A DNA stretch of 64,000 nucleotides from Acidimicrobiia bacterium (GTDB lineage: Bacteria; Actinomycetota; Acidimicrobiia; Acidimicrobiales; MedAcidi-G1): the NCBI GenBank assembly GCA_012959995.1, contig DUCC01000020.1, positions 13,744-77,743 of the forward strand. Reading direction: 5' to 3'. Of this stretch, positions 5,746 to 44,527 are shown piece by piece. Made by a program: the position numbers and the translations under genes. A model generated the notes under the pieces. It had not been told where the DNA came from, searched no databases, and was given only the letters and a program-made list of their open reading frames with translations. The stretch's first letter is position 1, and each line of letters begins with the position of its first letter.

Positions 5746-8700
5746 ATGCGGGGAAAGCGAAGAGGTTTGAGTGTCTTTTTGACCCTCATGGTTTTGGCAA
5801 CGGTAAGTGCGGTGCCGGTGGCTGCTCAAGAAGTAGAGCCCGACACCCCAGTGGTTGAACTTGCCCTTTCTGCGCAAGGCGCTGAACTGTCTGAAGCGGG
5901 CTACCAACCGGGAGCAGCCGCTACTGACCTGGCTAAAGAAAAACTTTTAAACGACCCGACAATGACCCGCAATCCGTTTGGGTTGTTGGTGCGTTTTGCT
6001 CAGACGGCCAGCGTGGTTGATGTAGATCAAACGCTGCTAACTGTGGGGGGCACCGTGGTGGGTGGGGCGCTTGATGGCCAGTCTTTGTACCTGGTGGAAA
6101 CCCTTTCTGATCTTGATGAGGCAGCCGAATTGTTGCGCAGCATGCCCGGTGTGGCTTGGGTGGGCTTTGACGATGTGGTGCAAGCCACCGTGTTGCCGTC
6201 GGACCCTGACCTTGACCAATTGTGGGGCATGAACGGCACGTACGGCATTGATGCTCCGGGTGCATGGGCGCAAACGCTCGGCGACCCTTCGGTAGTGGTG
6301 GCCATTATCGACACCGGGGTTGACTTAGATCACCCCGACCTGGCCGCCAACATTTGGACCAACTCGGGTGAAATCGCCGGCAACGGCCTTGACGACGATG
6401 GCAACGGTTATATCGATGATCTTCACGGCTGGGACTTTGTTAACAACGATGGCGACCCCAACGATGACAACAATCACGGCACGCATGTGGCCGGCACCAT
6501 TGCTGCGGTTTCCGACAATGTAGGTGTGGTGGGTGTAGCGCCAAATACTCAAGTTATGGCCTTGAAGTTCTTAGATGCCAACGGCTCGGGCTACACCTCA
6601 AATGCGGTCACCGCTTTGACCTACGCCGTTAACAATGGAGCACAAATTTCTAACAACTCTTGGGGCGGGGGCGGATCAAGCTCTTCCATGTCTTCCATGT
6701 TGGACATCGCCGCAACGGCCAACCATTTGTTTGTGGCGGCCGCCGGCAACTCGTCGAACAACAACGACAGTAGCCCTTCGTATCCGGCTTCGTATAGCCA
6801 AAACAATGTGTTAGCGGTCGCCGCCAACCAAAGCGATGGAGCGCCATCAAGTTTTACCAGTTATGGCGCTACCTCGGTAGATGTGGTGGCGCCTGGCTCG
6901 GGCATTTTGTCTTCGGTAGTGGGAGGCGGCTACGCCACCTTTAGCGGTACCTCAATGGCTACCCCCCATGTGGCTGGCGTGGCGGCTTTGATGCGAGCGG
7001 TGAACCCAAACATTTCTTTTGCCGACATCAAACAAATATTGATTGATACCTCTACGGCGGATTCCCGCCTCGATGGCTACGCCGTTTCGGGCGGGGTAGT
7101 CAATGCCGCTGACGCAGTGACGGCAGCAGCCGGTGGCGGCCCTGGTTTAAGCATCGTGGCTTCGGCTACCTCGGTCACTGAAGGCGATGTAGTGACCTAC
7201 ACGGCCACTGCTGTTGACCAAAACGGCACAGATATTTCGAGTCAAACCACTTGGAGCATTGATGGTGCTTCATTGGGAACAGGAGCGGTGTTGTCTTATG
7301 TCGCCGACACGGTAGGCACCATGCGTATCCGAGCCGAAGCAGCAGCCAATGGGATGTCTACTTCGCACACCAGCACACTTTATGTGGCAGAAATTGAGCG
7401 CTCAGTCACCGTGGTCAACCCCAACGGGGGAGAGACCTACGCCGTGGGTGATGTGGTGCCCATTAATTGGACTTCGGTAGGGCCGGTAGGAAACGTAGAT
7501 ATCTCTGTTTCTGATCAAAGCTCGGGTCAGGTTGAATACGCCGGAAGCACCGGGTTGCCCATTGTTGACCACCAAACCACTTCGGTGTCGATCAGCGTGC
7601 CAGGTTCGGTGGACATTGCCAGCATGATCGTGGGCCTACGGCTTGACCACACCTACGACGGTGACTTGAAAATTGTTTTAACCCACCCCACGGGGCCTTC
7701 AGTTGTTTTGGCCAACTATGCCGGTGGTTGGGGCAATAATTACGGTACGGGCTCGCAGGATTGTTCGGGCTCGCTCACCGTGTTTTCCGATAGCGCATCC
7801 ACCAGCATTTCGTCTGGTTCGGCGCCTTTTGAGGGTTCATATGTGCCTTATCAGGCGCTCTCAACTTTTGCCGGCTTAGATGCTGGGGGGCAATGGACGC
7901 TGGCCATTACCGATTCAGCGGGGCTAGACACCGGTACGTTCTTTTGCGCCGAACTTGATTTTGGGGGCACCAGCACGGTGGTAGCTACCGGGGTCGATGT
8001 TGCCGACGGAACAACTGCTTGGACAGTCCCAGAGTCTTTGGGAGGCATGGAATTGTTGGCCACAGTCGGCAACAGTTTGGCAGCAGACTCCTCAGATGAT
8101 TTCTTTAGCGTGACCAGCGTGCCGCCGACTACGACCACGACGACGGAGCCTCCGGCTACTACTACGACGACGGAGCCTCCGGCTACTACTACGACGTCAA
8201 CTACGACCACGACGACGGAGCCTCCGGCTACTACTACGACGTCAACTACGACCACGACGACGGAGCCTCCGGCTACTACTACGACGTCAACTACGACCAC
8301 GACGACGGAGCCTCCGGTGGCTGTGGTGAACGTGGTTGCCCCTAACGGCGGCGAATCTTATCAACCAGGCGATACCGTCCAAGTGGTCTGGACCAGCACT
8401 GGTGCATCGACCGCAGCCGATTTAACATTGCATCCGGTAACCGAAGCCCAAGAAGAGTTTGCGGGAAGCAACAGCGGCGAAATTAATGATTACTCCACTC
8501 TCTCGGTGGCCATAGAAGTTCCCACCGATGGGATAATTTCTGATCTTGAGGTCGGGATACGCCTTGACCATACCTACACCAATGATCTTCAAATCGTCTT
8601 ACGCCACCCCGGCGGGATGGGCATCACTTTGGTCAATGGCGAAGGCGGTTCAGGAAACAACTTTGGTAGCGGGGCTACTGATTGTTCGGGCAACTTCACT

Positions 8701-9507
8701 ATTTTTGATGACGATGCCGCTGCGCTGATTGTCGCCGGCTCAGCCCCTTTCGAGGGCCGGCATCAACCAGAAAATCTTTTGTCGGCTTTTGACGGGCTCT
8801 CTATGCGCGGTACTTGGCAATTAGAAATTACCGACAGTTTCCTCTGGGACGAAGGGGCGCTCCACTGCGTGACCCTTTCGGCCGCTACTCAAGGGCAAAG
8901 CTTGGCCATTGGAGTGAACTCTCTTTACCCCTGGGCTATTGATGGTTCGGTGGCGAACGGAAATTACCTCCTTGAGGTAGCCAGCGGAGGTGGCACCGAC
9001 CTTTCGGATGCATCCTTCGCCCTTGCTGACCCCCCACCGCCCACGACCACAACCACAACCACCACGACAACCCCGCCTACGACCACCACGTCCCCGCCTA
9101 CGACCACCACGCTGGCCCCTATTTTTGATGCCAGTGACAATTTCCCAACCAGTCCGGTCAATGAATATGTGGCCAACAGCGGTTATTACGAAGATGAATG
9201 GTCAGGGTTGCTCGATGCGGCCGCTTACCTTGAGCAGACCCCAGAACAATTACAAACCATGTCGGTAGGAGTGATTGCCTTCCTTATGGCGCTTTCTGGC
9301 CCCGACCAGCCCATATGGTCCATTGGCAGTCCGCCTGATGTTAATGGCGGCCATGTCGTGCAAAGCCATTACTTCGACGCTGACGGAACGCAAAACTCTT
9401 TAGAAAACGTGGCGGCCGCTACCAATCTGAACGGAGCGCAAACCCAAAAATTCGCTACCTCGGTGCTGATCTTTCTCATAATGTTGTCACAACTCCAAGA
9501 AGGCTGA
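5746..9507 (+). CDS. Secreted S8 subtilisin-like serine peptidase with two proprotein-convertase P-domains, Thr-rich linkers and unassigned C-terminal domain
   Basis: Signal peptide ending PVAA. Catalytic IIDTG, NHGTHVAG, GTSMATPHVAG. Two LDHTYxxDLxIxL..P-type P-domains, each preceded by a PNGGE motif. Confidence 0.92.
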   Translation: MRGKRRGLSVFLTLMVLATVSAVPVAAQEVEPDTPVVELALSAQGAELSEAGYQPGAAATDLAKEKLLNDPTMTRNPFGLLVRFAQTASVVDVDQTLLTVGGTVVGGALDGQSLYLVETLSDLDEAAELLRSMPGVAWVGFDDVVQATVLPSDPDLDQLWGMNGTYGIDAPGAWAQTLGDPSVVVAIIDTGVDLDHPDLAANIWTNSGEIAGNGLDDDGNGYIDDLHGWDFVNNDGDPNDDNNHGTHVAGTIAAVSDNVGVVGVAPNTQVMALKFLDANGSGYTSNAVTALTYAVNNGAQISNNSWGGGGSSSSMSSMLDIAATANHLFVAAAGNSSNNNDSSPSYPASYSQNNVLAVAANQSDGAPSSFTSYGATSVDVVAPGSGILSSVVGGGYATFSGTSMATPHVAGVAALMRAVNPNISFADIKQILIDTSTADSRLDGYAVSGGVVNAADAVTAAAGGGPGLSIVASATSVTEGDVVTYTATAVDQNGTDISSQTTWSIDGASLGTGAVLSYVADTVGTMRIRAEAAANGMSTSHTSTLYVAEIERSVTVVNPNGGETYAVGDVVPINWTSVGPVGNVDISVSDQSSGQVEYAGSTGLPIVDHQTTSVSISVPGSVDIASMIVGLRLDHTYDGDLKIVLTHPTGPSVVLANYAGGWGNNYGTGSQDCSGSLTVFSDSASTSISSGSAPFEGSYVPYQALSTFAGLDAGGQWTLAITDSAGLDTGTFFCAELDFGGTSTVVATGVDVADGTTAWTVPESLGGMELLATVGNSLAADSSDDFFSVTSVPPTTTTTTEPPATTTTTEPPATTTTSTTTTTTEPPATTTTSTTTTTTEPPATTTTSTTTTTTEPPVAVVNVVAPNGGESYQPGDTVQVVWTSTGASTAADLTLHPVTEAQEEFAGSNSGEINDYSTLSVAIEVPTDGIISDLEVGIRLDHTYTNDLQIVLRHPGGMGITLVNGEGGSGNNFGSGATDCSGNFTIFDDDAAALIVAGSAPFEGRHQPENLLSAFDGLSMRGTWQLEITDSFLWDEGALHCVTLSAATQGQSLAIGVNSLYPWAIDGSVANGNYLLEVASGGGTDLSDASFALADPPPPTTTTTTTTTTPPTTTTSPPTTTTLAPIFDASDNFPTSPVNEYVANSGYYEDEWSGLLDAAAYLEQTPEQLQTMSVGVIAFLMALSGPDQPIWSIGSPPDVNGGHVVQSHYFDADGTQNSLENVAAATNLNGAQTQKFATSVLIFLIMLSQLQEG
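8173..8317 (+). repeat. Perfect 45-bp coding tandem repeat (3 copies plus partial), EPPATTTTSTTTTTT
   Basis: GAGCCTCCGGCTACTACTACGACGTCAACTACGACCACGACGACG at 8173, 8218 and 8263. Confidence 0.92.
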
Positions 9508-9588
9508 CTACACCTTTAGGTTGACAACTCGACCCGCTACCCTGATGCTTTAGACCTCTGATAGCAGTGCTACGGCAAAGGAACAAAC

Positions 9589-12387
9589 ATGGGGAAAGGA
9601 GCAAAGAGCCAGCGGGCTTTTCTTGTTTTTCTTGTTGCTGCCGTAGTAAATGTGGTACCGGTAGCGGCCACGGAGCCTTCTATGCCTTTGCCGCCAGAAG
9701 AGATCGCCTGGTCAACGGCCGGCGCTGAAATTGAGGCGAAAGGGTGGGTAGATGGGCAAGCCGCCACCACCATGGCTAAGGCTGAACTTTTTTCTGATCC
9801 GACTATTTCTCGTAACCCCTTTGGGCTTTTGGTGCGTTTTGCCGACTCGGCTAGCGCCTTCGACAGAGAACAAGCGCTACTATTGGTGGACGGTTTTTTA
9901 GTGGGCGAACCGCTGGATGGCACCGCAACTTATTTGGTGGAAACTTTACGGAACCTTGATGATTCGCTAGCTGTTTTGCAGGAGACAGCGGGAGTCGAAT
10001 GGGTAGGTTTCGATGAAGTAATGCAAGCCACCGTGTTGCCGAGCGACCCCGACTTAGACCAACTCTGGGGCCTCAACGGTACTTACGGCATCGATGCCCC
10101 GGGCGCTTGGGCGCAAACGCTCGGCGACCCGTCGGTGGTGGTGGCCATTATCGACACTGGGGTTGATCTTGACCACCCAGACTTATTGGCCAACCTGTGG
10201 GTGAACTTGGGTGAAATAGCCGGTAACGGCCTCGACGATGATGGCAACGGCTACGTCGACGACATCCATGGCTACGACTTTGTCAACGACGATGGTGACC
10301 CCAACGATGACAACAACCACGGCACGCATGTGGCGGGCACCATCGCTGCGGTGGCCGACACGGTCGGTGTGGTGGGGGTGGCCCCCGACACAAAAATAAT
10401 GGCCTTGAAGTTTCTTGACGATAAAGGTTCGGGGTTCGTGTCAGATGCAGTGTTGGCTTTAACTTATGCAGTGAACAATGGGGCGCAAATTTCTAATAAT
10501 TCGTGGGGCGGTGGTGGTGCTGAAGCAGCCATGTCAACCATGTTGGATACCGCAGAAGTAGCCAACCACCTTTTTGTGGCAGCCGCCGGCAACGAAGCTA
10601 ACGACAATGATGCCAACCCCACTTATCCTGCTTCTTATAGCCAGGCCAATGTGTTGACCGTGGCTTCTAACCAAAGCGATGGTGCGCTCTCTAGCTTTAG
10701 CAACTATGGAGCCACTTCGGTAGATGTGGTGGCGCCTGGCTCGGGTATTTTGTCTTCGGTGGTGGGCGGCGGGTACGCCACCTTTAGCGGCACTTCTATG
10801 GCTGCCCCTCATGTGGCCGGGGTGGCGGCGCTCATGCGCGCGGTGGACTCCAGCATCACCTATGCCAGCATTAAACAATTTCTCATTGATACGGCCACCG
10901 TTGATCCACGGTTAACCACGGTGGCGGTTTCGGGCGGAGTAATTAATGCGGCCGCGGCGGTCACCGCGGCTTCGGGAGCGGGGCCTTCGTTGAGCGTGAC
11001 GGCCACGGAAACTTCGGTCACTGAAGGTGCGACGGTTACTTTTACCGCAGTAGCCGCCGACCAAAGCAGCGTTGATGTGTCAACCCAAGTCAATTGGAGT
11101 CTGGACGGTACTGCTTTAGGCACGGGAGATACGTTGGTTTATTCGGCCGATACCCCGGGCAGCATGCGTATTCGTGCCGAGGTGACCACCGGTGGGTTCA
11201 CTACCCTGGTTATCACTACTTTGACGGTGATCGCCATTGTGCGTACGGTCACCGTGAGTAGCCCCAACGGGGGTGAAGACTTTGCTGTTGGTGAAGCGGT
11301 AGCCATCAATTGGACTTCAGTGGGCCCGGTGGGCAACGTGGATGTCTCGGTGATTAGCCAAATTTCTGGTTCTATGGAGTATGCGGCGGCCGCCGGTTTG
11401 CCCATCATTGACCAGCAAACGACCACCATGACGATCAACGTGCCTTATTCAGCCAGCATCGCCACTTTGGAAGTGGGGTTACGCCTTGACCACACCTACG
11501 ACGGGGATTTGTATATAACGCTTGCTCATCCCAACGGAACTACGGTGGTTTTGGCGAACTACGTTGGTGGTTGGGGAGACAACTTCGGCAGCGGGGCACA
11601 GAGTTGTTCGGGGTCGCTTACCGTGTTTTCTGATGGTGGAGAAGTTGCCGTAGGGTCGGGGTCGGCTCCATTTGTCGGCAAGTTCCAGCCGGCCGAAGCG
11701 CTTTCGGCTTTTGCTGGTTTGGACACTGTAGGGGATTGGGTTTTGTCCGTTACTGATTCGGCCGACTTGGATACTGGTTCTCTTTTTTGTACAGAGTTAG
11801 ACTTTTTTGGCACGAATACGTTGGTTGCTTCCGGTCTTGACGTAAACGTGGGGACGGTTGAGTGGACCGTGCCCGAGGCGGTGAATGCCTCAAATTTGAT
11901 GGTTTCGGTAGGGAACGATTTGGCTTCGGACACTTCGGACAGCGTGTTTACCATCGCTGGTGGGCCGCCGGTGACGACGACCACCACGACTCTCCCGCCG
12001 ACTTTTGATGCCAGTTCGGGTTTCCCCTCCACGCCACAAGACGAATACCTTGTCTTGACCGGCTACTTCGATGACGAACTACTGGGGGTCGTTCAAGCCG
12101 CCGACTACCTGGGTCAGTCCCCGTCCCAGTTGCAAACACTTTCCGTGGGAGTGCTGGCTTTTTTGATGGCCTTGGCGGGTTCTGATCAACCAGATTGGTC
12201 GACAGGCTCCCCACCGGATATAAGCGGAAACAACGTGGTGCAAAGCCACTTCTTTTCTTTGGACGGCACCCAGGGGGCTTTAGAGGCAGTAGCGGCGGCC
12301 ACCGGCCTCACCGGGGCGCAGACCCAGAAATTCGCTACTTCGGTCGTGGTCTTTTTGATTCTGCTGGCCATGGCCCGCAGTAGTTAA
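9589..12387 (+). CDS. Secreted S8 peptidase paralog (one P-domain, same C-terminal domain)
   Basis: Signal peptide, D/H/S triad motifs, colinear with 5746..9507 but lacking the second P-domain module. Stop overlaps the smpB stop. Confidence 0.92.
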   Translation: MGKGAKSQRAFLVFLVAAVVNVVPVAATEPSMPLPPEEIAWSTAGAEIEAKGWVDGQAATTMAKAELFSDPTISRNPFGLLVRFADSASAFDREQALLLVDGFLVGEPLDGTATYLVETLRNLDDSLAVLQETAGVEWVGFDEVMQATVLPSDPDLDQLWGLNGTYGIDAPGAWAQTLGDPSVVVAIIDTGVDLDHPDLLANLWVNLGEIAGNGLDDDGNGYVDDIHGYDFVNDDGDPNDDNNHGTHVAGTIAAVADTVGVVGVAPDTKIMALKFLDDKGSGFVSDAVLALTYAVNNGAQISNNSWGGGGAEAAMSTMLDTAEVANHLFVAAAGNEANDNDANPTYPASYSQANVLTVASNQSDGALSSFSNYGATSVDVVAPGSGILSSVVGGGYATFSGTSMAAPHVAGVAALMRAVDSSITYASIKQFLIDTATVDPRLTTVAVSGGVINAAAAVTAASGAGPSLSVTATETSVTEGATVTFTAVAADQSSVDVSTQVNWSLDGTALGTGDTLVYSADTPGSMRIRAEVTTGGFTTLVITTLTVIAIVRTVTVSSPNGGEDFAVGEAVAINWTSVGPVGNVDVSVISQISGSMEYAAAAGLPIIDQQTTTMTINVPYSASIATLEVGLRLDHTYDGDLYITLAHPNGTTVVLANYVGGWGDNFGSGAQSCSGSLTVFSDGGEVAVGSGSAPFVGKFQPAEALSAFAGLDTVGDWVLSVTDSADLDTGSLFCTELDFFGTNTLVASGLDVNVGTVEWTVPEAVNASNLMVSVGNDLASDTSDSVFTIAGGPPVTTTTTTLPPTFDASSGFPSTPQDEYLVLTGYFDDELLGVVQAADYLGQSPSQLQTLSVGVLAFLMALAGSDQPDWSTGSPPDISGNNVVQSHFFSLDGTQGALEAVAAATGLTGAQTQKFATSVVVFLILLAMARSS

Positions 12388-21447: not shown

Positions 21448-22620
21448 ATGAACACACTTAACGTACCTAAAACTCGGTTCCCTGGTTTGTCTAACGGTTG
21501 GGCTCGCTTTGATGGCCCGGCCGGCACCCAAATGGTTGATTCATCTATCGAAGCCATGGCCGATTGGCAACGGAGCGGCAACAACGCCAACACCCATGGG
21601 TCGTTTCCGGCGGCACAAGCTTGTGACGATTTGGTTGATGAGGTGAGCGCTACCATGGCCCAACTTTTAGGGGCTGATGCGGAGGGCATGATTTTTGGGC
21701 CCAGCACTACCTCAAACTTAATGTCGCTTACACGGGCTATTGGGGCCACGTTGCGCCCGGGCGATGAGATTATTTGCACTACTTTGGACCACGATGCCAA
21801 CGTGGCGCCGTGGTTGCTGGCCGCTGCGGATGCCGGGGCGGTGGTGCGTATGGCTGAATTTGATGGTGCCACTGGGCGGTTGGCGCCTCAAGCAGTGGGT
21901 GATTTGTTGACCGACCGCACTCGTTGGGTGGCGGTGACCGGCGGGTCTAACGCCATTGGCACCATGCCCGACATTGCGGCCATTACGGATTTGGCTCATG
22001 CCGCAGGGGCCTTGGTGGCCGTAGATGGTGTGCATAGGACCCCGCACCGGGTGACCGATGTAGGGGCCATTGGTTGTGATGCTTACGCCACTTCGCCTTA
22101 TAAGTGGTATGGCCCGCATGCTGGGGTGTTATGGCTAAGCCCAGAATTACGTGATGTGTTGCCGGCTTACAAGGTGCGCCCGGCTCCTGAGACTGGTGGC
22201 GGGCGTTGGCAGCACGGCACCCCTTCGTACGAAACGCTGGCCGGCATTAATGCAGCAGCCCAGTTTTTGTTGACTACCGGCATGGACAATATTGCTGCGC
22301 ATGAAAACCAGGTTTTCGCTCGATTGGTGGGTGGTTTATACGACCTGCCGGGGGTGCGGGTTTTGGGTTCCACCGGCCCTGATGATCTCGCGGAGCGGGC
22401 GCCTACTTTGATGTTGATGGTGGAAGGCCAAGCACCACTTTCGGTCGCTGAGCATTTAGCGAGGGCCCAGGTGGCGGTATGGGACGGACACAACTATGCG
22501 GTGGGTGCGATGGAACCCTTGGGCTTGCACCACGAAGAGGGTGCGGTGCGTGCCGGGGTTACCGCTTACATCACCGATCAAGATGTTGACCGGCTTTTGT
22601 CTGCGGTAGCAAGCCTTTAA
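21448..22620 (+). CDS. Cysteine desulfurase-like class V PLP enzyme lacking the SufS catalytic Cys
   Basis: FDGPAGTQ, LDHDANVAPW, VDGVH, SPYKWYGPH (PLP Lys), GTP. DGHNYA stands where SufS has AGHHCA. Start at ATG 21448. Confidence 0.85.
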   Translation: MNTLNVPKTRFPGLSNGWARFDGPAGTQMVDSSIEAMADWQRSGNNANTHGSFPAAQACDDLVDEVSATMAQLLGADAEGMIFGPSTTSNLMSLTRAIGATLRPGDEIICTTLDHDANVAPWLLAAADAGAVVRMAEFDGATGRLAPQAVGDLLTDRTRWVAVTGGSNAIGTMPDIAAITDLAHAAGALVAVDGVHRTPHRVTDVGAIGCDAYATSPYKWYGPHAGVLWLSPELRDVLPAYKVRPAPETGGGRWQHGTPSYETLAGINAAAQFLLTTGMDNIAAHENQVFARLVGGLYDLPGVRVLGSTGPDDLAERAPTLMLMVEGQAPLSVAEHLARAQVAVWDGHNYAVGAMEPLGLHHEEGAVRAGVTAYITDQDVDRLLSAVASL

Positions 22621-22696
22621 CCAAAACCCCGTTGGAGCGAGGGTCATTATCGGGCGGGCAAAGTAGTTTAGGGTCTTAAGGGACAGGAGGTGAGCA

Positions 22697-23725
22697 ATGA
22701 CAAGACGACTAACCCAATACAGTCACGGCGCTGGTTGAGGCTGCAAGCTTGCTCCTGGTGAGCTGGCGCACGTGGTGCGTCAATTAACCCCGATAGACAA
22801 CCCGAACCTTTTAGTGGGTGCGGCCACTGGTGATGATGCTGCGGTGTGGCGTCTTGATGACGAACGCTCCCTGGTGGTTACTGCAGATTTCATTACCCCG
22901 GTGGTCGATGAAGCGCGCCTTTGGGGCCAAGTAGCGGCCGCTAATGCGGTGTCTGATGTTTACGCCATGGGTGGCCGTCCATTGTTAGCTTTGAACCTGG
23001 TGTGCTGGAACACCGAAGAACTTTCTAACGATTTGTTGGCTGAAGTTTTGTTGGGTGCTCAAGACATTGCGCAACAGGCCGGCTTTGTTATTGCTGGCGG
23101 ACACACCGTTGATGACCCGGAACCGAAGTTTGGTTTAGCCGTGGTGGGGGAGGCACACCCGGATCACCTGTTAACCAATGCTGGTTTTAAAGTTGGGCAA
23201 AAATTGATTTTGAGCAAACCGTTGGGTATCGGAGTTATCACAACGGCCATCAAAGCCGGTACGGCGCCCCCTGAGGTGGTGGATGCTGCCATGGCTTCCA
23301 TGGTGCGTTTGAATGCGGATGCTGCCACGGTGGCTTTGGCGGCCGGTGCCACCGGGGCCACTGATATTACGGGGTTTGGTTTGTTGGGTCATTTAGGACG
23401 GGCGGTCCAGGAGTCGCAGGTTTCGGCCGAAATCGAAGTGGCCGCTGTGCCCATGTTGGGCGGTACTCGAGCGCTGGCCGAAGCGGGCACCATGCCCGGG
23501 GGGAGCCGCCGTAATTTGGCTTGGGTAGAAGAACGCCTGGACCGGGGCGGTTTTTCTGACCTTGAGGTGCTTTTGCTGGCCGATGCGCAGACTTCTGGCG
23601 GGCTGCTCTTTGGGGTTGAAGATGCTGCGGTTTCCGAGACCATGAGTGATTTGGAAGAATCGGGTCATCAGGCGGCGGTTATCGGAACGGTTGTTGAAGG
23701 CCTCGGCCAGATTGCTTTGCGCTAG
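22697..23725 (+). CDS. selD: Selenide, water dikinase (selenophosphate synthetase), selenocysteine-containing
   Basis: AGGAGG RBS at 22685-22690, then ATG 22697 reads MTRRLTQYSHGAG-TGA(22736-22738)-GCKLAPGEL in frame with the track ORF. DDAAV, DFITP, NAVSDVYAMGG, GGHT, DITGFGLLGH, DAQTSGGLL. Confidence 0.94.
22747..22767 (+). promoter_or_regulatory. Candidate bacterial SECIS hairpin
   Basis: GCU-U-GCUC-[CUGGU]-GAGC-U-GGC. The upper stem starts 12 nt after the UGA and has a G-containing apical loop. Folded by eye. Confidence 0.65.
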
Positions 23726-35747: not shown

Positions 35748-36980
35748 TTAGAAGGCGAAGAACTGTCCGGCTGCTTCGAGAGCATCGGCCAGTGCGTCGA
35801 CATCGGATTCGTCGTTATAAAGGTAGAGCGAAGCGCGGGCAGTAGCACCCACCCCCAGTAAACGCATGAGGGGCTTGGCGCAATGGTGGCCGGCACGTAC
35901 GCAAACACCGCGTTCGTCAAGTACTTGGCTGAGGTCGTGGGGGTGAACGTCTTTGTAGCAAAGTGACAGCACACCGCCCCGAATGGTGAGGTCTTGCGGG
36001 CCGTGAATAATTAGGTCTTCGCCGAAACGGTCGCCCAGGGTGCGCAGGGCGTAACCGGTGAGTTGGGTTTCGTGGGCGACGATGTTGTCCATGCCCAGGT
36101 TTTCTAGGTAATCCACGGCAGCGCCCAGCCCGATCATTTCGGCGATAGGTGGAGTGCCGGCTTCGAACTTCCAAGGGATTTCGTTGGCGGTAAAACCTTC
36201 TTGGGTGACGTTGAGAATCATCTCGCCTCCGCCGAGGAAAGGCGGCATGGCTTCTAACAACTCTGCGCGACCCCACAACACACCGATGCCGGTTGGGCCG
36301 CACATTTTGTGGCCGGTAAAGACTAAAAAGTCGCAGTTGAATTCGGCAACGTCGGTGGGGCGGTGAGGAACCCATTGGCTGGCGTCTACCAGACAAAGGG
36401 CGCCCACGGCGTGGGCGGCATCGGCCAGTAAGCGCACGGGAGGGAGGGTGCCCAAAACGTTTGAGGCGGCCGAAATGGCTACCAGTTTTACGCCTTCGAG
36501 CATTCGGTCAAGGTCGGTGAGGTCAAGTTGGCCGTCATCGGTGAGGGGTATCCAGCGCACTTCGACGCCTTTGTCGGCGGCCAGTTGCTGCCAAGGCACG
36601 ATGTTGGCGTGGTGCTCTAACGACGAGATGAGTACCACGTCGCCGGCGTTGAGGTTGGCTCGCCCCCAGGTGTAAGACACCAGGTTGATGGCTTCGGTAG
36701 CGTTTTTGGTGAAGATGATTTCTCGGTCGGCGGGGGCGTTAATAAAGTTAGCGACCCGCAGGCGAGCGTTTTCGGTGGCGTCAGTGGCGGCGGCGGCCAG
36801 GTAGTAGGCCCCGCGGTGCACGTTTGCGTTGAGGTGTTCGTAGTAGTGGTTGAGGGCGTCGAGTACCTGTTGAGGTTTTTGTGAGGTAGCGCCAGAGTCT
36901 AAGTAGATGACCGGCCGGTCGTTGATCAGATTGTTGAGCAGAGGAAAGTCTGCTTTGACGGCCGCGGCATCTAAGGTCAT
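35748..36980 (-). CDS. sufS: Cysteine desulfurase SufS
   Basis: YLDSGATSQKP, NVHRG, TGHKMCGPTG, RAGHHCA (catalytic Cys). Confidence 0.95.
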   Translation of the reverse strand: MTLDAAAVKADFPLLNNLINDRPVIYLDSGATSQKPQQVLDALNHYYEHLNANVHRGAYYLAAAATDATENARLRVANFINAPADREIIFTKNATEAINLVSYTWGRANLNAGDVVLISSLEHHANIVPWQQLAADKGVEVRWIPLTDDGQLDLTDLDRMLEGVKLVAISAASNVLGTLPPVRLLADAAHAVGALCLVDASQWVPHRPTDVAEFNCDFLVFTGHKMCGPTGIGVLWGRAELLEAMPPFLGGGEMILNVTQEGFTANEIPWKFEAGTPPIAEMIGLGAAVDYLENLGMDNIVAHETQLTGYALRTLGDRFGEDLIIHGPQDLTIRGGVLSLCYKDVHPHDLSQVLDERGVCVRAGHHCAKPLMRLLGVGATARASLYLYNDESDVDALADALEAAGQFFAF

Positions 36981-41783: not shown

Positions 41784-44527
41784 GAGGTGGATCTTCCTAC
41801 GCCGTGCCCGGTGGCTGGGACGGTGTCGTGGCGGCCCGGGTCGGGAGACTCCGGGTCGATGCCGTAAAGAGCAATAGCTTCGTTGACGGTTTCTAAGGGG
41901 ATTTCTCCGGCGGTGGCGAGGGCATGAAGCACGGCTACTACCACGTGGGCCATGTCGACTTCGAAGAAACGTCGGAGGGCTTCTCGGGTGTCGCTGCGGC
42001 CAAAACCATCGGTACCTAACACGGTAAAGGGGCGCGGTACCCAGCGAGAAACCTGATCGGCTACTAATTGTTGAAAGTCGGAGACCGCCACTAAGGGCCC
42101 TTGCCCGTCGTTGAGGACTTGCGTAACGAGGGGTTCTTGAGGGGAGTCTTCGGGGTGTAAACGGTTTAGGCGGTCTATTTCTTGGGCTTGTTCGCGTAAA
42201 CGTTTGTAAGAGGTCACGCTCCACAGGTCGCAACTCACGTCCCATCGGGTGGCCAGTTCGGCGGCGGCATCTCGGGCTGCTTGGTGGGCGGAACCAGAAA
42301 ACATGATGCCTGCTTGGTGGGAGCATTCTGGCCCGTCGGCCCAACGGTAAATGCCGTTAACGATGTCGGTTTTGGCAATGTTGTCGGGGCGGGCCGGCAT
42401 TTCGTAGGGCTCGTTGTAGAGGGTGAGGTAGTAGAAAATGTCTTCGTTTTTGAGCGGGTCGGCGTGGCCGTACATGCGTTGCAGGCCGTCGTCGATGATG
42501 GCCCCTAACTCGTAGGCGAAAGCTGGGTCGTAGGCCTGGCAGGGGGGCACAGTGGTGGCCAGCACCAAACTGTGGCCGTCCTGGTGTTGGAGGCCTTCGC
42601 CGGCCAAGGTGGTGCGTCCGGCGGTGGCGCCTAGTAGAAAACCTCGGGTGCGTGCGTCGGCCGCCGACCAAATCAGGTCGCCCACGCGTTGAAAGCCAAA
42701 CATGGAATAAAAAGTAAAGAAAGGGACCATGGGTACCCCGAGGTTGGCGTAACTGGTGCCGGCGGCAATAAAACTCGATAGCGAACCGGCTTCGGTGATG
42801 CCTTCTTCGAGTAGTTGCCCGTCGGTGTCTTCTCGGTAGGACAGTAAAAGTTCGTGATCGATGGGTTCGTAGAGTTGGCCAAAGGGGGCGTAAATTCCGA
42901 ACTCTCGAAACAACGAGTCCATGCCGAAAGTACGGGCCTCGTCGGGCACGATGGGCACTACTCGGGGCCCAAATTCTTTGTCCCGCATGAGGTCACGCAA
43001 CAAGTTGGTTAAGGCCATGGTGGTTGAGACCGGGCGGCCCTGTGATCCTTTGGTGAGGCCATCAAAAACTGATGGATCGGGCAGGGTTAGGGGGCGGCGT
43101 TCGCGAATGCGTCGCTTCGGGATGGAGCCGCCTAAAGCCCGGCGCCGTTGCATCATGTACTGGTATTCGTCGCTATCTTCGCTGGGCCGCAGGTAAGGGG
43201 CTCGGTCGCCTTCCAGGAGTGCTTCGGGAATATCTTCGGTCAGTTGCAAACGTTCCCGAAGAGCCAATAGTTGCTCTTTGGTCATTTTTTTGATCTGGTG
43301 GGTGGCGTTACGTGCTTCAAGACCTTCGCCCAAGGTCCAACCCTTAACGGTTTTGGCCAAAATTACGGTGGGGGCATCATTTTCTTCGGTGGCCGCTTTG
43401 TAAGCGGCGAAAAGTTTTTGATAATCGTGGCCGCCGCGAGGCAGGTCTTCTATTTCTTTGTCGGTGAGGTGGCTGACAAGTTCACCGAGGCGAGGGTCGG
43501 GGCCGAAAAAGTTTTCTCGAACGTAACTGGCGGGTTCAATGGCGAGGCGCTGGTATTCGCCATCCACGGTGGTGTTGAACTTGTTGAGGAGCACTCCGTC
43601 GGTGTCGTTTTGGATGATTCCGTCCCAAACGGAACCCCAGAGAACTTTGATGACGTTCCAACCGGCGCCCCGAAAAACGCCTTCGAGTTCTTGAATGATT
43701 TTTCCGTTGCCGCGTACTGGCCCGTCGAGGCGTTGCAGGTTGCAGTTGACGATCCAAATAAGGTTGCCCAGTTTTGATCGTCCGGCTAAAGAAATAGCGC
43801 CTAAAGTTTCTGGTTCGTCGCATTCGCCGTCGCCTAAAAACGAAAATATCCGACTGGCCGAGGTGTCGTCAAGACGCCGATCAGTTATGTATTTGTTGAA
43901 ACGGGCATGGTAAATGGAGTTGATGGGTCCGAGCCCCATAGAAACCGTTGGGTATTCCCAAAAATCTGGCATAAGCCGAGGGTGGGGGTAACTCGAGAGG
44001 CCGCCGCTTTTTACTTCCAAGCGGAATCGATTGAGGTGTTCTTCCTCAAGGCGACGTTCTAAAAATGCTCGGGCATAAACCCCGGGGGCGGCGTGCCCTT
44101 GAAAGTAAACGTGGTCGCCGGGTTGGCCGTCGTCTTTGCCACGGAAAAACCAGTTGAATCCCACTTCATAGAGCGAAGCGGAGGAAGCAAAGGTTGAGAG
44201 GTGCCCGCCAATGCCGTCGGCTGTTTTGTTGGCGTTGATTACCATGGCGGCGGCATTCCAGCGTACAAAAGAGCGGATGCGGCGTTCAAGCTCTTCGTCG
44301 CCGGGAAACCATGGCTGGTCGGAAGCAGAAATAGTGTTGATGTAGGGCGTCCAGGTGGGGGGAGCGTTGCCTACGTTGAGGGTTCCTGCTCGTTCCATCA
44401 GTTTGGCCAGCATGAAGCGGGCCCGGCGTCGGCCTGAGCGATCTACTAGAGAATCAAAAGAATCGAGCCATTCGCCGGTTTCTTCTGGATCGTTGTCGGG
44501 GAGTTGATTGGTGAATCCATCGATCAT
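41780..44527 (-). CDS. aceE: Pyruvate dehydrogenase E1, homodimeric type
   Basis: DPEETGEW, GGHLSTFAS, FQGHAAPG, PTVSMGLGP, GDGECDEPE, EEGITEAG, EGLQHQDG. Confidence 0.96.
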   Translation of the reverse strand: MIDGFTNQLPDNDPEETGEWLDSFDSLVDRSGRRRARFMLAKLMERAGTLNVGNAPPTWTPYINTISASDQPWFPGDEELERRIRSFVRWNAAAMVINANKTADGIGGHLSTFASSASLYEVGFNWFFRGKDDGQPGDHVYFQGHAAPGVYARAFLERRLEEEHLNRFRLEVKSGGLSSYPHPRLMPDFWEYPTVSMGLGPINSIYHARFNKYITDRRLDDTSASRIFSFLGDGECDEPETLGAISLAGRSKLGNLIWIVNCNLQRLDGPVRGNGKIIQELEGVFRGAGWNVIKVLWGSVWDGIIQNDTDGVLLNKFNTTVDGEYQRLAIEPASYVRENFFGPDPRLGELVSHLTDKEIEDLPRGGHDYQKLFAAYKAATEENDAPTVILAKTVKGWTLGEGLEARNATHQIKKMTKEQLLALRERLQLTEDIPEALLEGDRAPYLRPSEDSDEYQYMMQRRRALGGSIPKRRIRERRPLTLPDPSVFDGLTKGSQGRPVSTTMALTNLLRDLMRDKEFGPRVVPIVPDEARTFGMDSLFREFGIYAPFGQLYEPIDHELLLSYREDTDGQLLEEGITEAGSLSSFIAAGTSYANLGVPMVPFFTFYSMFGFQRVGDLIWSAADARTRGFLLGATAGRTTLAGEGLQHQDGHSLVLATTVPPCQAYDPAFAYELGAIIDDGLQRMYGHADPLKNEDIFYYLTLYNEPYEMPARPDNIAKTDIVNGIYRWADGPECSHQAGIMFSGSAHQAARDAAAELATRWDVSCDLWSVTSYKRLREQAQEIDRLNRLHPEDSPQEPLVTQVLNDGQGPLVAVSDFQQLVADQVSRWVPRPFTVLGTDGFGRSDTREALRRFFEVDMAHVVVAVLHALATAGEIPLETVNEAIALYGIDPESPDPGRHDTVPATGHGVGRSTS

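Follow-up and report, generated by a model that had tools for sequence, protein, structure and literature searches.

Does an enzyme of SufS-type fold that has no catalytic cysteine, and that is encoded directly ahead of a gene for selenide, water dikinase, serve to supply that kinase with selenium? The question is raised by a stretch of 64,000 nucleotides from an Acidimicrobiia bacterium (GenBank assembly GCA_012959995.1, contig DUCC01000020.1), referred to here as the window, in which a pyridoxal 5'-phosphate (PLP) enzyme of 390 amino acids is encoded at 21448–22620 on the + strand and is followed on the same strand by selD. The initial annotation had interpreted the pair as a candidate selenium-specific supply module, in which the first enzyme would be a naturally selenocysteine-selective lyase returning selenium to selenophosphate. 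Our analysis identifies the gene as a further member of TIGR01976, a known, uncharacterised protein family. Its product is probably a cysteine-independent PLP enzyme of general metabolism, not one dedicated to SelD, and its adjacency to selD would have been inherited from one origin. A dedicated selenium-supply function is unlikely.

Active site of the PLP enzyme and its family

The translated sequence was compared with the Pfam and NCBIfam profiles. It matched positions 3–371 of the 371 positions of Pfam Aminotran_5, and its best match in NCBIfam was TIGR01976, which it met over the full length with 376.7 bits (curated cut-off, 352.35), residues 8–387 of the enzyme falling on profile positions 7–401 of 401. 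TIGR01976 (am_tr_V_VC1184, "cysteine desulfurase-like protein") is held in NCBIfam as a hypothetical equivalog of unknown function, and a full-text search of the literature found no functional study of either TIGR01976 or VC1184. The window protein is among the low scorers of the family, in a divergent Acidimicrobiia subclade scoring about 350–400 bits, compared with about 450–500 bits for the main group. The SufS/CsdA models all remained below their cut-offs (TIGR01979, 174.8 versus 475.1; NF006791, 138.3 versus 661; TIGR03392, 130.9 versus 493.6), and the NifS and IscS models were likewise far under theirs. The model of the selenocysteine lyase SclA, NF040779, reached 72 bits against a cut-off of 525, a result that speaks against a selenocysteine-selective lyase.

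AlphaFold2 modeling of the PLP enzyme gave a confident structure (predicted local distance difference test, pLDDT, 94.1; predicted template modeling score, pTM, 0.93), whose best structural matches were SufS/CsdB structures (template modeling score 0.91, root-mean-square deviation 1.8–3.1). With these enzymes, represented by E. coli PDB entries 1jf9 and 1kmk and by the SufS of the window, it shares the fold, the PLP lysine, the aspartate, the stacking histidine and the carboxylate-binding arginine. The residues expected to bind PLP and an alpha-amino acid are present as Lys219, Asp193, His115 and Arg368; Lys219 (codon AAG, 22102–22104, + strand) lies in SPYKWYGPH and aligns with the HK of SufS. 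It differs in the cysteine of RxGHHCA, which is tyrosine in the PLP enzyme, in a glutamine, which is histidine, and in the lack of an adjoining SufE/SufU partner.

The true SufS of the window, which served for comparison, is encoded at 35748–36980 on the − strand, between sufC and sufU, and carries its catalytic cysteine in VRAGHHCAKP. In BLASTP, the two proteins share 31% identity (E 3e-41), with GHNYA opposite GHHCA; the catalytic cysteine is therefore replaced by Tyr350 (codon TAT, 22495–22497, + strand), found in VWDGHNYAVG at the position of the persulfide-forming cysteine of SufS. The initial annotation had noted that the enzyme keeps the fold and the lysine and has DGHNYA in place of AGHHCA, and this is confirmed by translation, BLASTP and the model alike. 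Because the persulfide-forming cysteine is absent, the protein cannot be a persulfide-forming desulfurase. Judged from its modeled fold and conserved residues, it is nevertheless an intact, catalytically competent enzyme of the SufS fold. A second match to GGNCAYCAYTGYGC in the window, at 42547–42560, lies out of frame within a pyruvate dehydrogenase E1 gene and was set aside as chance.

To what extent the replacement is a property of this one protein can be read from an alignment of 137 family members, assembled from the class sample described below, close relatives, and 80 loci from the genome collection. The members come from Actinomycetota, Chloroflexota, Acidobacteriota, Planctomycetota, Cyanobacteriota, Nitrospirota, Calditrichota and Myxococcota, together with one metagenome-assembled genome of Gammaproteobacteria and two Sphingomonadaceae. 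Tyrosine occupies the position of the SufS cysteine in 137/137, and the PLP lysine, the aspartate that binds the pyridine nitrogen, the stacking histidine and the carboxylate-binding arginine are each likewise invariant (137/137). No other cysteine was invariant in family alignments of 10 and 40 sequences. Since the tyrosine is invariant family-wide, including members from genomes without detectable selD, the replacement is not readable as an adaptation to selD; as far as the alignment informs, it is an old trait of a widespread family.

Further positions set the family apart from SufS. Histidine is found in 107 of the 137 members where SufS has glutamine (VDAVH versus VDASQ; VDGVH in the window protein), and in SufS the glutamine at this position contacts O3' of PLP. 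The lysine motif of TIGR01976 reads Y-K-[FW]-[FY]-G-P-H. In addition, LDHDAN is invariant in the family and a W-x-G-x-x-Y-A loop is common to its members, which makes these motifs a candidate family signature.

The conserved residues also bear on a different reading, that of a PLP-fold protein which survives as a non-catalytic relic or has a regulatory role. Such a case is known from a relative, Rv3778c of Mycobacterium tuberculosis (PDB 3cai; E 8e-38 against the window enzyme), which is without the PLP lysine and was judged non-catalytic (PMC12910592). In the window enzyme, however, all four binding residues are in place and invariant across the alignment, and the model is confident throughout. 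The Rv3778c-like reading was rejected because the PLP lysine is present, and we regard it as very improbable. TIGR01976 is thus of interest as a large, multi-phylum and apparently catalytically intact family with an invariant tyrosine in place of the desulfurase cysteine.

Linkage to selD within and beyond one taxonomic family

The PLP gene ends at 22620 and the ATG of selD is at 22697, so that the distance of 76 nt on the same strand given in the initial annotation is correct. The window's own taxonomic family (f1) was sampled with 24 genomes from seven genera. The order PLP gene–selD on one strand, with gaps of 58–181 nt, was found at 20 loci, and the two genes lie within 2.3 kb of each other in all seven genera, which favours a selenocysteine lyase working with SelD. 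Against this, unrelated genes interrupt the pair in genus g107 (L090, L091 and L092), where the PLP gene and selD are 1.5–2.3 kb apart: the intervening gene encodes a family III CoA-transferase, accompanied in L090 by a short-chain dehydrogenase (SDR) gene.

The pair is part of a collinear f1 block of about 17 kb, consisting of two upstream genes (from g14276) and the genes for GGDEF/EAL, ClpP, Rpe, AceK, the PLP enzyme, SelD, carboxyltransferase and GNAT proteins. Lineage-specific insertions occur at three junctions of this block, one of them the PLP gene–selD junction. Because the whole block is collinear, the adjacency of the PLP gene and selD is no better kept than that of selD and the carboxyltransferase gene or of the PLP gene and aceK, and the linkage is indistinguishable from the synteny of its 17-kb background. 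A maximum-likelihood tree united the cases of adjacency and near-adjacency in one clade of 23 rows, all of them from f1, and the next row outside this clade (L098) is without linkage. The tree fits an adjacency that arose once, in the ancestor of f1. As the outcome of a single evolutionary event, the adjacency therefore counts as one observation, not many. The window's genome holds at least six class V aminotransferase genes, and the odds of a class V neighbour of selD by chance are roughly 0.5% for any one arrangement, a figure resting on an estimated roughly 2,000 genes in the 2.03-Mb genome.

To follow the linkage beyond f1, a class sample of 201 genomes was used, 55 of which carry a TIGR01976 member above the cut-off and 146 of which carry selD. 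The two genes are side by side only in the window's genome; in the remaining 54 genomes with the enzyme, no adjacency was found, the genes being either on separate contigs or at distances from 38 kb to over 1 Mb. Across phyla, the 80 loci were inspected together with flanks of up to 10 kb to either side, and selD was within the flank in just one of them, itself from f1, leaving 79 loci without it. A phylum sample of 301 genomes showed no adjacency among the matches listed. That the pairing was met nowhere outside f1, neither in the 54 class genomes nor in 79/80 loci, speaks against a dedicated selenium function.

Open reading frames (ORFs) within 6 kb were also clustered across the 80 loci. 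They revealed no conserved partner, the best being a homoserine-dehydrogenase-like gene present at 9/80 loci, and genomic context consequently gives no clue to function.

The family is not dependent on selD, because its members occur in genomes in which selD was not detected. Four such genomes belong to the class sample (G008, G055, G100 and G118), and the first of them, 100% complete and in two contigs, has a copy that retains both the lysine and the tyrosine. In the phylum sample, 18 of the 87 genomes carrying the family are without detected selD, several of them closed. Further examples are the complete genome of Conexibacter sp. S30A1, a Streptomyces, a Sphingomonas and, as a control genome, Deinococcus radiodurans. 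Intact members without selD, all with the family's tyrosine, count against a lyase that exists to serve SelD.

Taken together, the conserved linkage, whose lack would refute the proposal according to the initial annotation itself, is largely absent: it is restricted to f1, belongs to a collinear block and is interrupted in one genus, and recurrent adjacency in independent lineages, beyond background synteny, was not found. The sequence facts behind the proposed selenium-specific module are sound, but the tyrosine is common to the whole family, members exist without selD, and the linkage is confined to f1. On these comparisons, gene order inherited within one lineage is the best explanation of the position beside selD, and a selenium-supply role gains little support.

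Candidate reactions and the case for selenium supply

What, then, might the enzyme do? Enzymes of the SufS-type fold are considered to work through a PLP-bound alanine enamine, which would form once the beta-substituent leaves without electrons, whether as sulfur passed to a cysteine thiolate, as Se(0), SO2 or CO2, or as the aldehyde of a retro-aldol cleavage. Sulfur abstraction from cysteine is excluded here, because the enzyme has no cysteine for it. We infer a reaction in which an amino acid loses its beta-substituent or is cleaved between C-beta and C-gamma, forming alanine, with Tyr350 as a putative proton donor or acceptor. Candidates would be desulfination of cysteine sulfinate, decarboxylation of the aspartate-beta-decarboxylase type and retro-aldol cleavage, with selenocysteine beta-lysis as a possible side activity. 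The position 76 nt upstream of selD would go back to a single origin in the f1 ancestor, from which it was presumably handed down with the conserved block.

Characterised relatives illustrate such chemistry. Among solved structures, the nearest in sequence is that of Fgm3 (PDB 9x4u; E 1.7e-46), a PLP retro-aldolase of Fusarium graminearum that acts on 4-hydroxy-arginine in fusaoctaxin biosynthesis; a second relative, UstD (PDB 7mkv; E 2.4e-25), is a decarboxylative aldolase. Both have the same fold as the window enzyme and no catalytic cysteine, and perform their chemistry via the alanine enamine. In contrast, they are fungal enzymes of secondary metabolism, and no biosynthetic gene cluster surrounds the gene of the window. 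As the C–C bond chemistry of the fungal relatives is synthetically valuable, it would be reasonable to screen the bacterial TIGR01976 enzymes for substrates.

Several points weigh against an enzyme of general metabolism. No bacterial member has a known substrate, and the reaction is deduced only from fold and residue conservation together with distant relatives from fungi, of which Fgm3 has phenylalanine at the cysteine position, not the invariant tyrosine of TIGR01976. No terminator was detected between the PLP gene and selD. In the absence of YedE and DUF3343, SelD would need some other selenium donor. Finally, selD is commoner in class genomes with the family (51/55) than in those without (95/146), and the phylum sample shows a weaker difference of the same sign (69/87, or 79%, with the family versus 145/214, or 68%, without), all counts being uncorrected for relatedness. 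The co-occurrence that the initial annotation suggested examining is therefore present as a mild positive association, set against the many members without selD; it suggests some connection with the use of selenium, and we do not lean on it either way.

The last three of these points favour the main alternative, which takes up the idea of the initial annotation: a naturally selenocysteine-selective beta-lyase that is co-transcribed with selD, ignores cysteine and recycles the selenium of free selenocysteine to selenophosphate. We judge the chemistry behind it to be sound: Cys-to-Ala mutants of E. coli NifS homologues, described by Mihara et al. in 2000, reportedly keep selenocysteine lyase as well as cysteine sulfinate desulfinase activity, as the initial annotation had stated for the former. 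Genomic precedents are also on record. A cysteine desulfurase-like (pfam00266) gene near an orphan selD was already seen by Peng et al. 2016 (PMC5029168), and fusions of NifS and SelD have been published (Mariotti et al. 2015, PMC4561486). The window resembles these fusions and selenium clusters in having a NifS-like gene directly beside a selenocysteine-containing selD, and differs from the fusions in that its genes are unfused, with a stop codon and a 76-nt spacer between them.

A further premise, that selenocysteine lyases can feed SelD, has a counterpart in vitro, where NifS-like proteins can replace selenide as the selenium source in the SelD assay (PMC5187540). In contrast, human SCL and SclA retain a catalytic cysteine, which is thought to carry selenium to the acceptor (bioRxiv 10.1101/2020.02.07.939272); the window's PLP enzyme is without it, and a cysteine-less enzyme would release free selenium. 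The window's true SufS is the more conventional candidate for any selenium delivery of the NifS type.

The selenium genes of the genome leave room for a donor. In this genome (G000; 2.03 Mb, 96.7% complete), selU, YedE (PF04143) and DUF3343/Se_S_carrier (PF11823) were not found; the lack of the latter two favours the selective lyase and distinguishes the genome from those with the selenium-utilisation operon (YedE/YedF/DUF3343).

Co-transcription with selD can be weighed from the spacer itself (22621–22696, + strand; 76 nt), which carries a GGAGG Shine–Dalgarno sequence ahead of selD. A scan of the spacer detected neither a terminator-like site on the + strand nor a sigma-70-like promoter, and its predicted RNA fold is no more stable than that of shuffled sequence (z 0.21). 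Read-through from the PLP gene into selD is thus possible on sequence grounds and, with the short distance on one strand, would suit the selective lyase. In relatives, however, the spacer varies over the 58–181 nt given above and is poorly conserved among genera, and several genera have a TAnnnT-like element 25–55 nt upstream of selD, which may be a promoter of selD's own inside the spacer. In L057, L062, L064 and L068, we observed a recurring TACCCT(T/G) 40–55 nt upstream of the selD ATG, similar to the actinobacterial −10 hexamer (TAnnnT).

Given the single-origin linkage, the family-wide tyrosine and the retained cysteine of human SCL and SclA, we consider the selenocysteine-selective lyase unlikely. 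Cleavage of selenocysteine is a possible activity of the enzyme, unsupported as its physiological role. Were the selective lyase true, it would be a simple natural solution to the problem of discriminating between selenium and sulfur, and would give SelD a new supply route.

The same chemistry could also operate without SelD. All TIGR01976 members might be cysteine-independent selenocysteine lyases that detoxify free or misincorporated selenocysteine whether or not SelD is present, the adjacency to selD in the window being fortuitous. This would account for the members in genomes without selD, and the invariant tyrosine could protonate the enamine. Experimental or contextual support was not found, no neighbour being conserved around the 80 loci, and the characterised relatives Fgm3 and UstD carry out unrelated C–C chemistry; we think such a role quite improbable. 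A bolder version would make the family natural cysteine-independent selenocysteine beta-lyases, with the enzyme acting in f1 (marine, without YedE/DUF3343) as an operon partner of SelD. The two genes would then form a minimal selenium-recycling module in which selenium is told from sulfur by the very absence of the cysteine. We hold this conjecture to be similarly doubtful, and favour a cysteine-independent enzyme of general metabolism.

The selD gene and its surroundings

The selD gene (22697–23725, + strand, ATG at 22697; TIGR00476, 367.7 bits against a cut-off of 125) encodes a selenide, water dikinase that is itself a selenoprotein. Its in-frame TGA is at 22736–22738, in the context GAG-U-GCK, and the same single TGA is present in most Acidimicrobiia selD genes of the class sample. 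The mechanical ORF list places the start of selD at GTG 22772, which would cost the protein its catalytic N-terminus.

Elsewhere in the genome, selA and selB are found side by side, and tRNA-Sec is on another contig. Together with the SelD that itself contains selenocysteine, these genes make up a minimal selenium trait, limited to selenocysteine. A marine lineage is suggested by a close homologue (P0006) in the Tara Oceans data.

The pair of PLP gene and selD is flanked by aceK on one side and an acyl-CoA carboxyltransferase gene on the other. Relatives have insertions elsewhere in the block as well, among them a SnoaL-like gene that separates aceK from the PLP gene, and genes for phosphotransferase, enoyl-CoA hydratase and amidohydrolase proteins that separate selD from the carboxyltransferase gene. 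Genes of acyl-CoA metabolism appear to have a hot spot in this block. A relation of the inserted genes to selenium was considered and rejected, as they encode SDR, family III CoA-transferase, phosphotransferase, enoyl-CoA hydratase, amidohydrolase and SnoaL-like proteins, assigned from a reading of the sequences, not from a family search.

Only one other genome of the class sample, G072, has a class V gene beside selD. It was rejected as a second pairing, since the gene is an ordinary cysteine-containing sufS in a sufC–sufS–sufU group. At this locus (L177, G072:C10:46000-62000, about 6990–10566), a selD of the selenocysteine type, with a gap of 2 nt and no change of strand, directly precedes sufC, the cysteine-containing sufS and sufU. 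The locus is a different instance of a NifS-like gene beside selD, and likewise an isolated one.

Two minor observations concern selD and its spacer in other genomes. At L059 (G212:C69), roughly nine tandem copies of GATGAATTCGGAAA lengthen the spacer to about 180 nt and stop just short of the Shine–Dalgarno sequence of selD. In the taxonomic family f3 of the same order, selD has no TGA and scores lower, at about 306–330 bits, a difference that suggests two selD lineages in the order.

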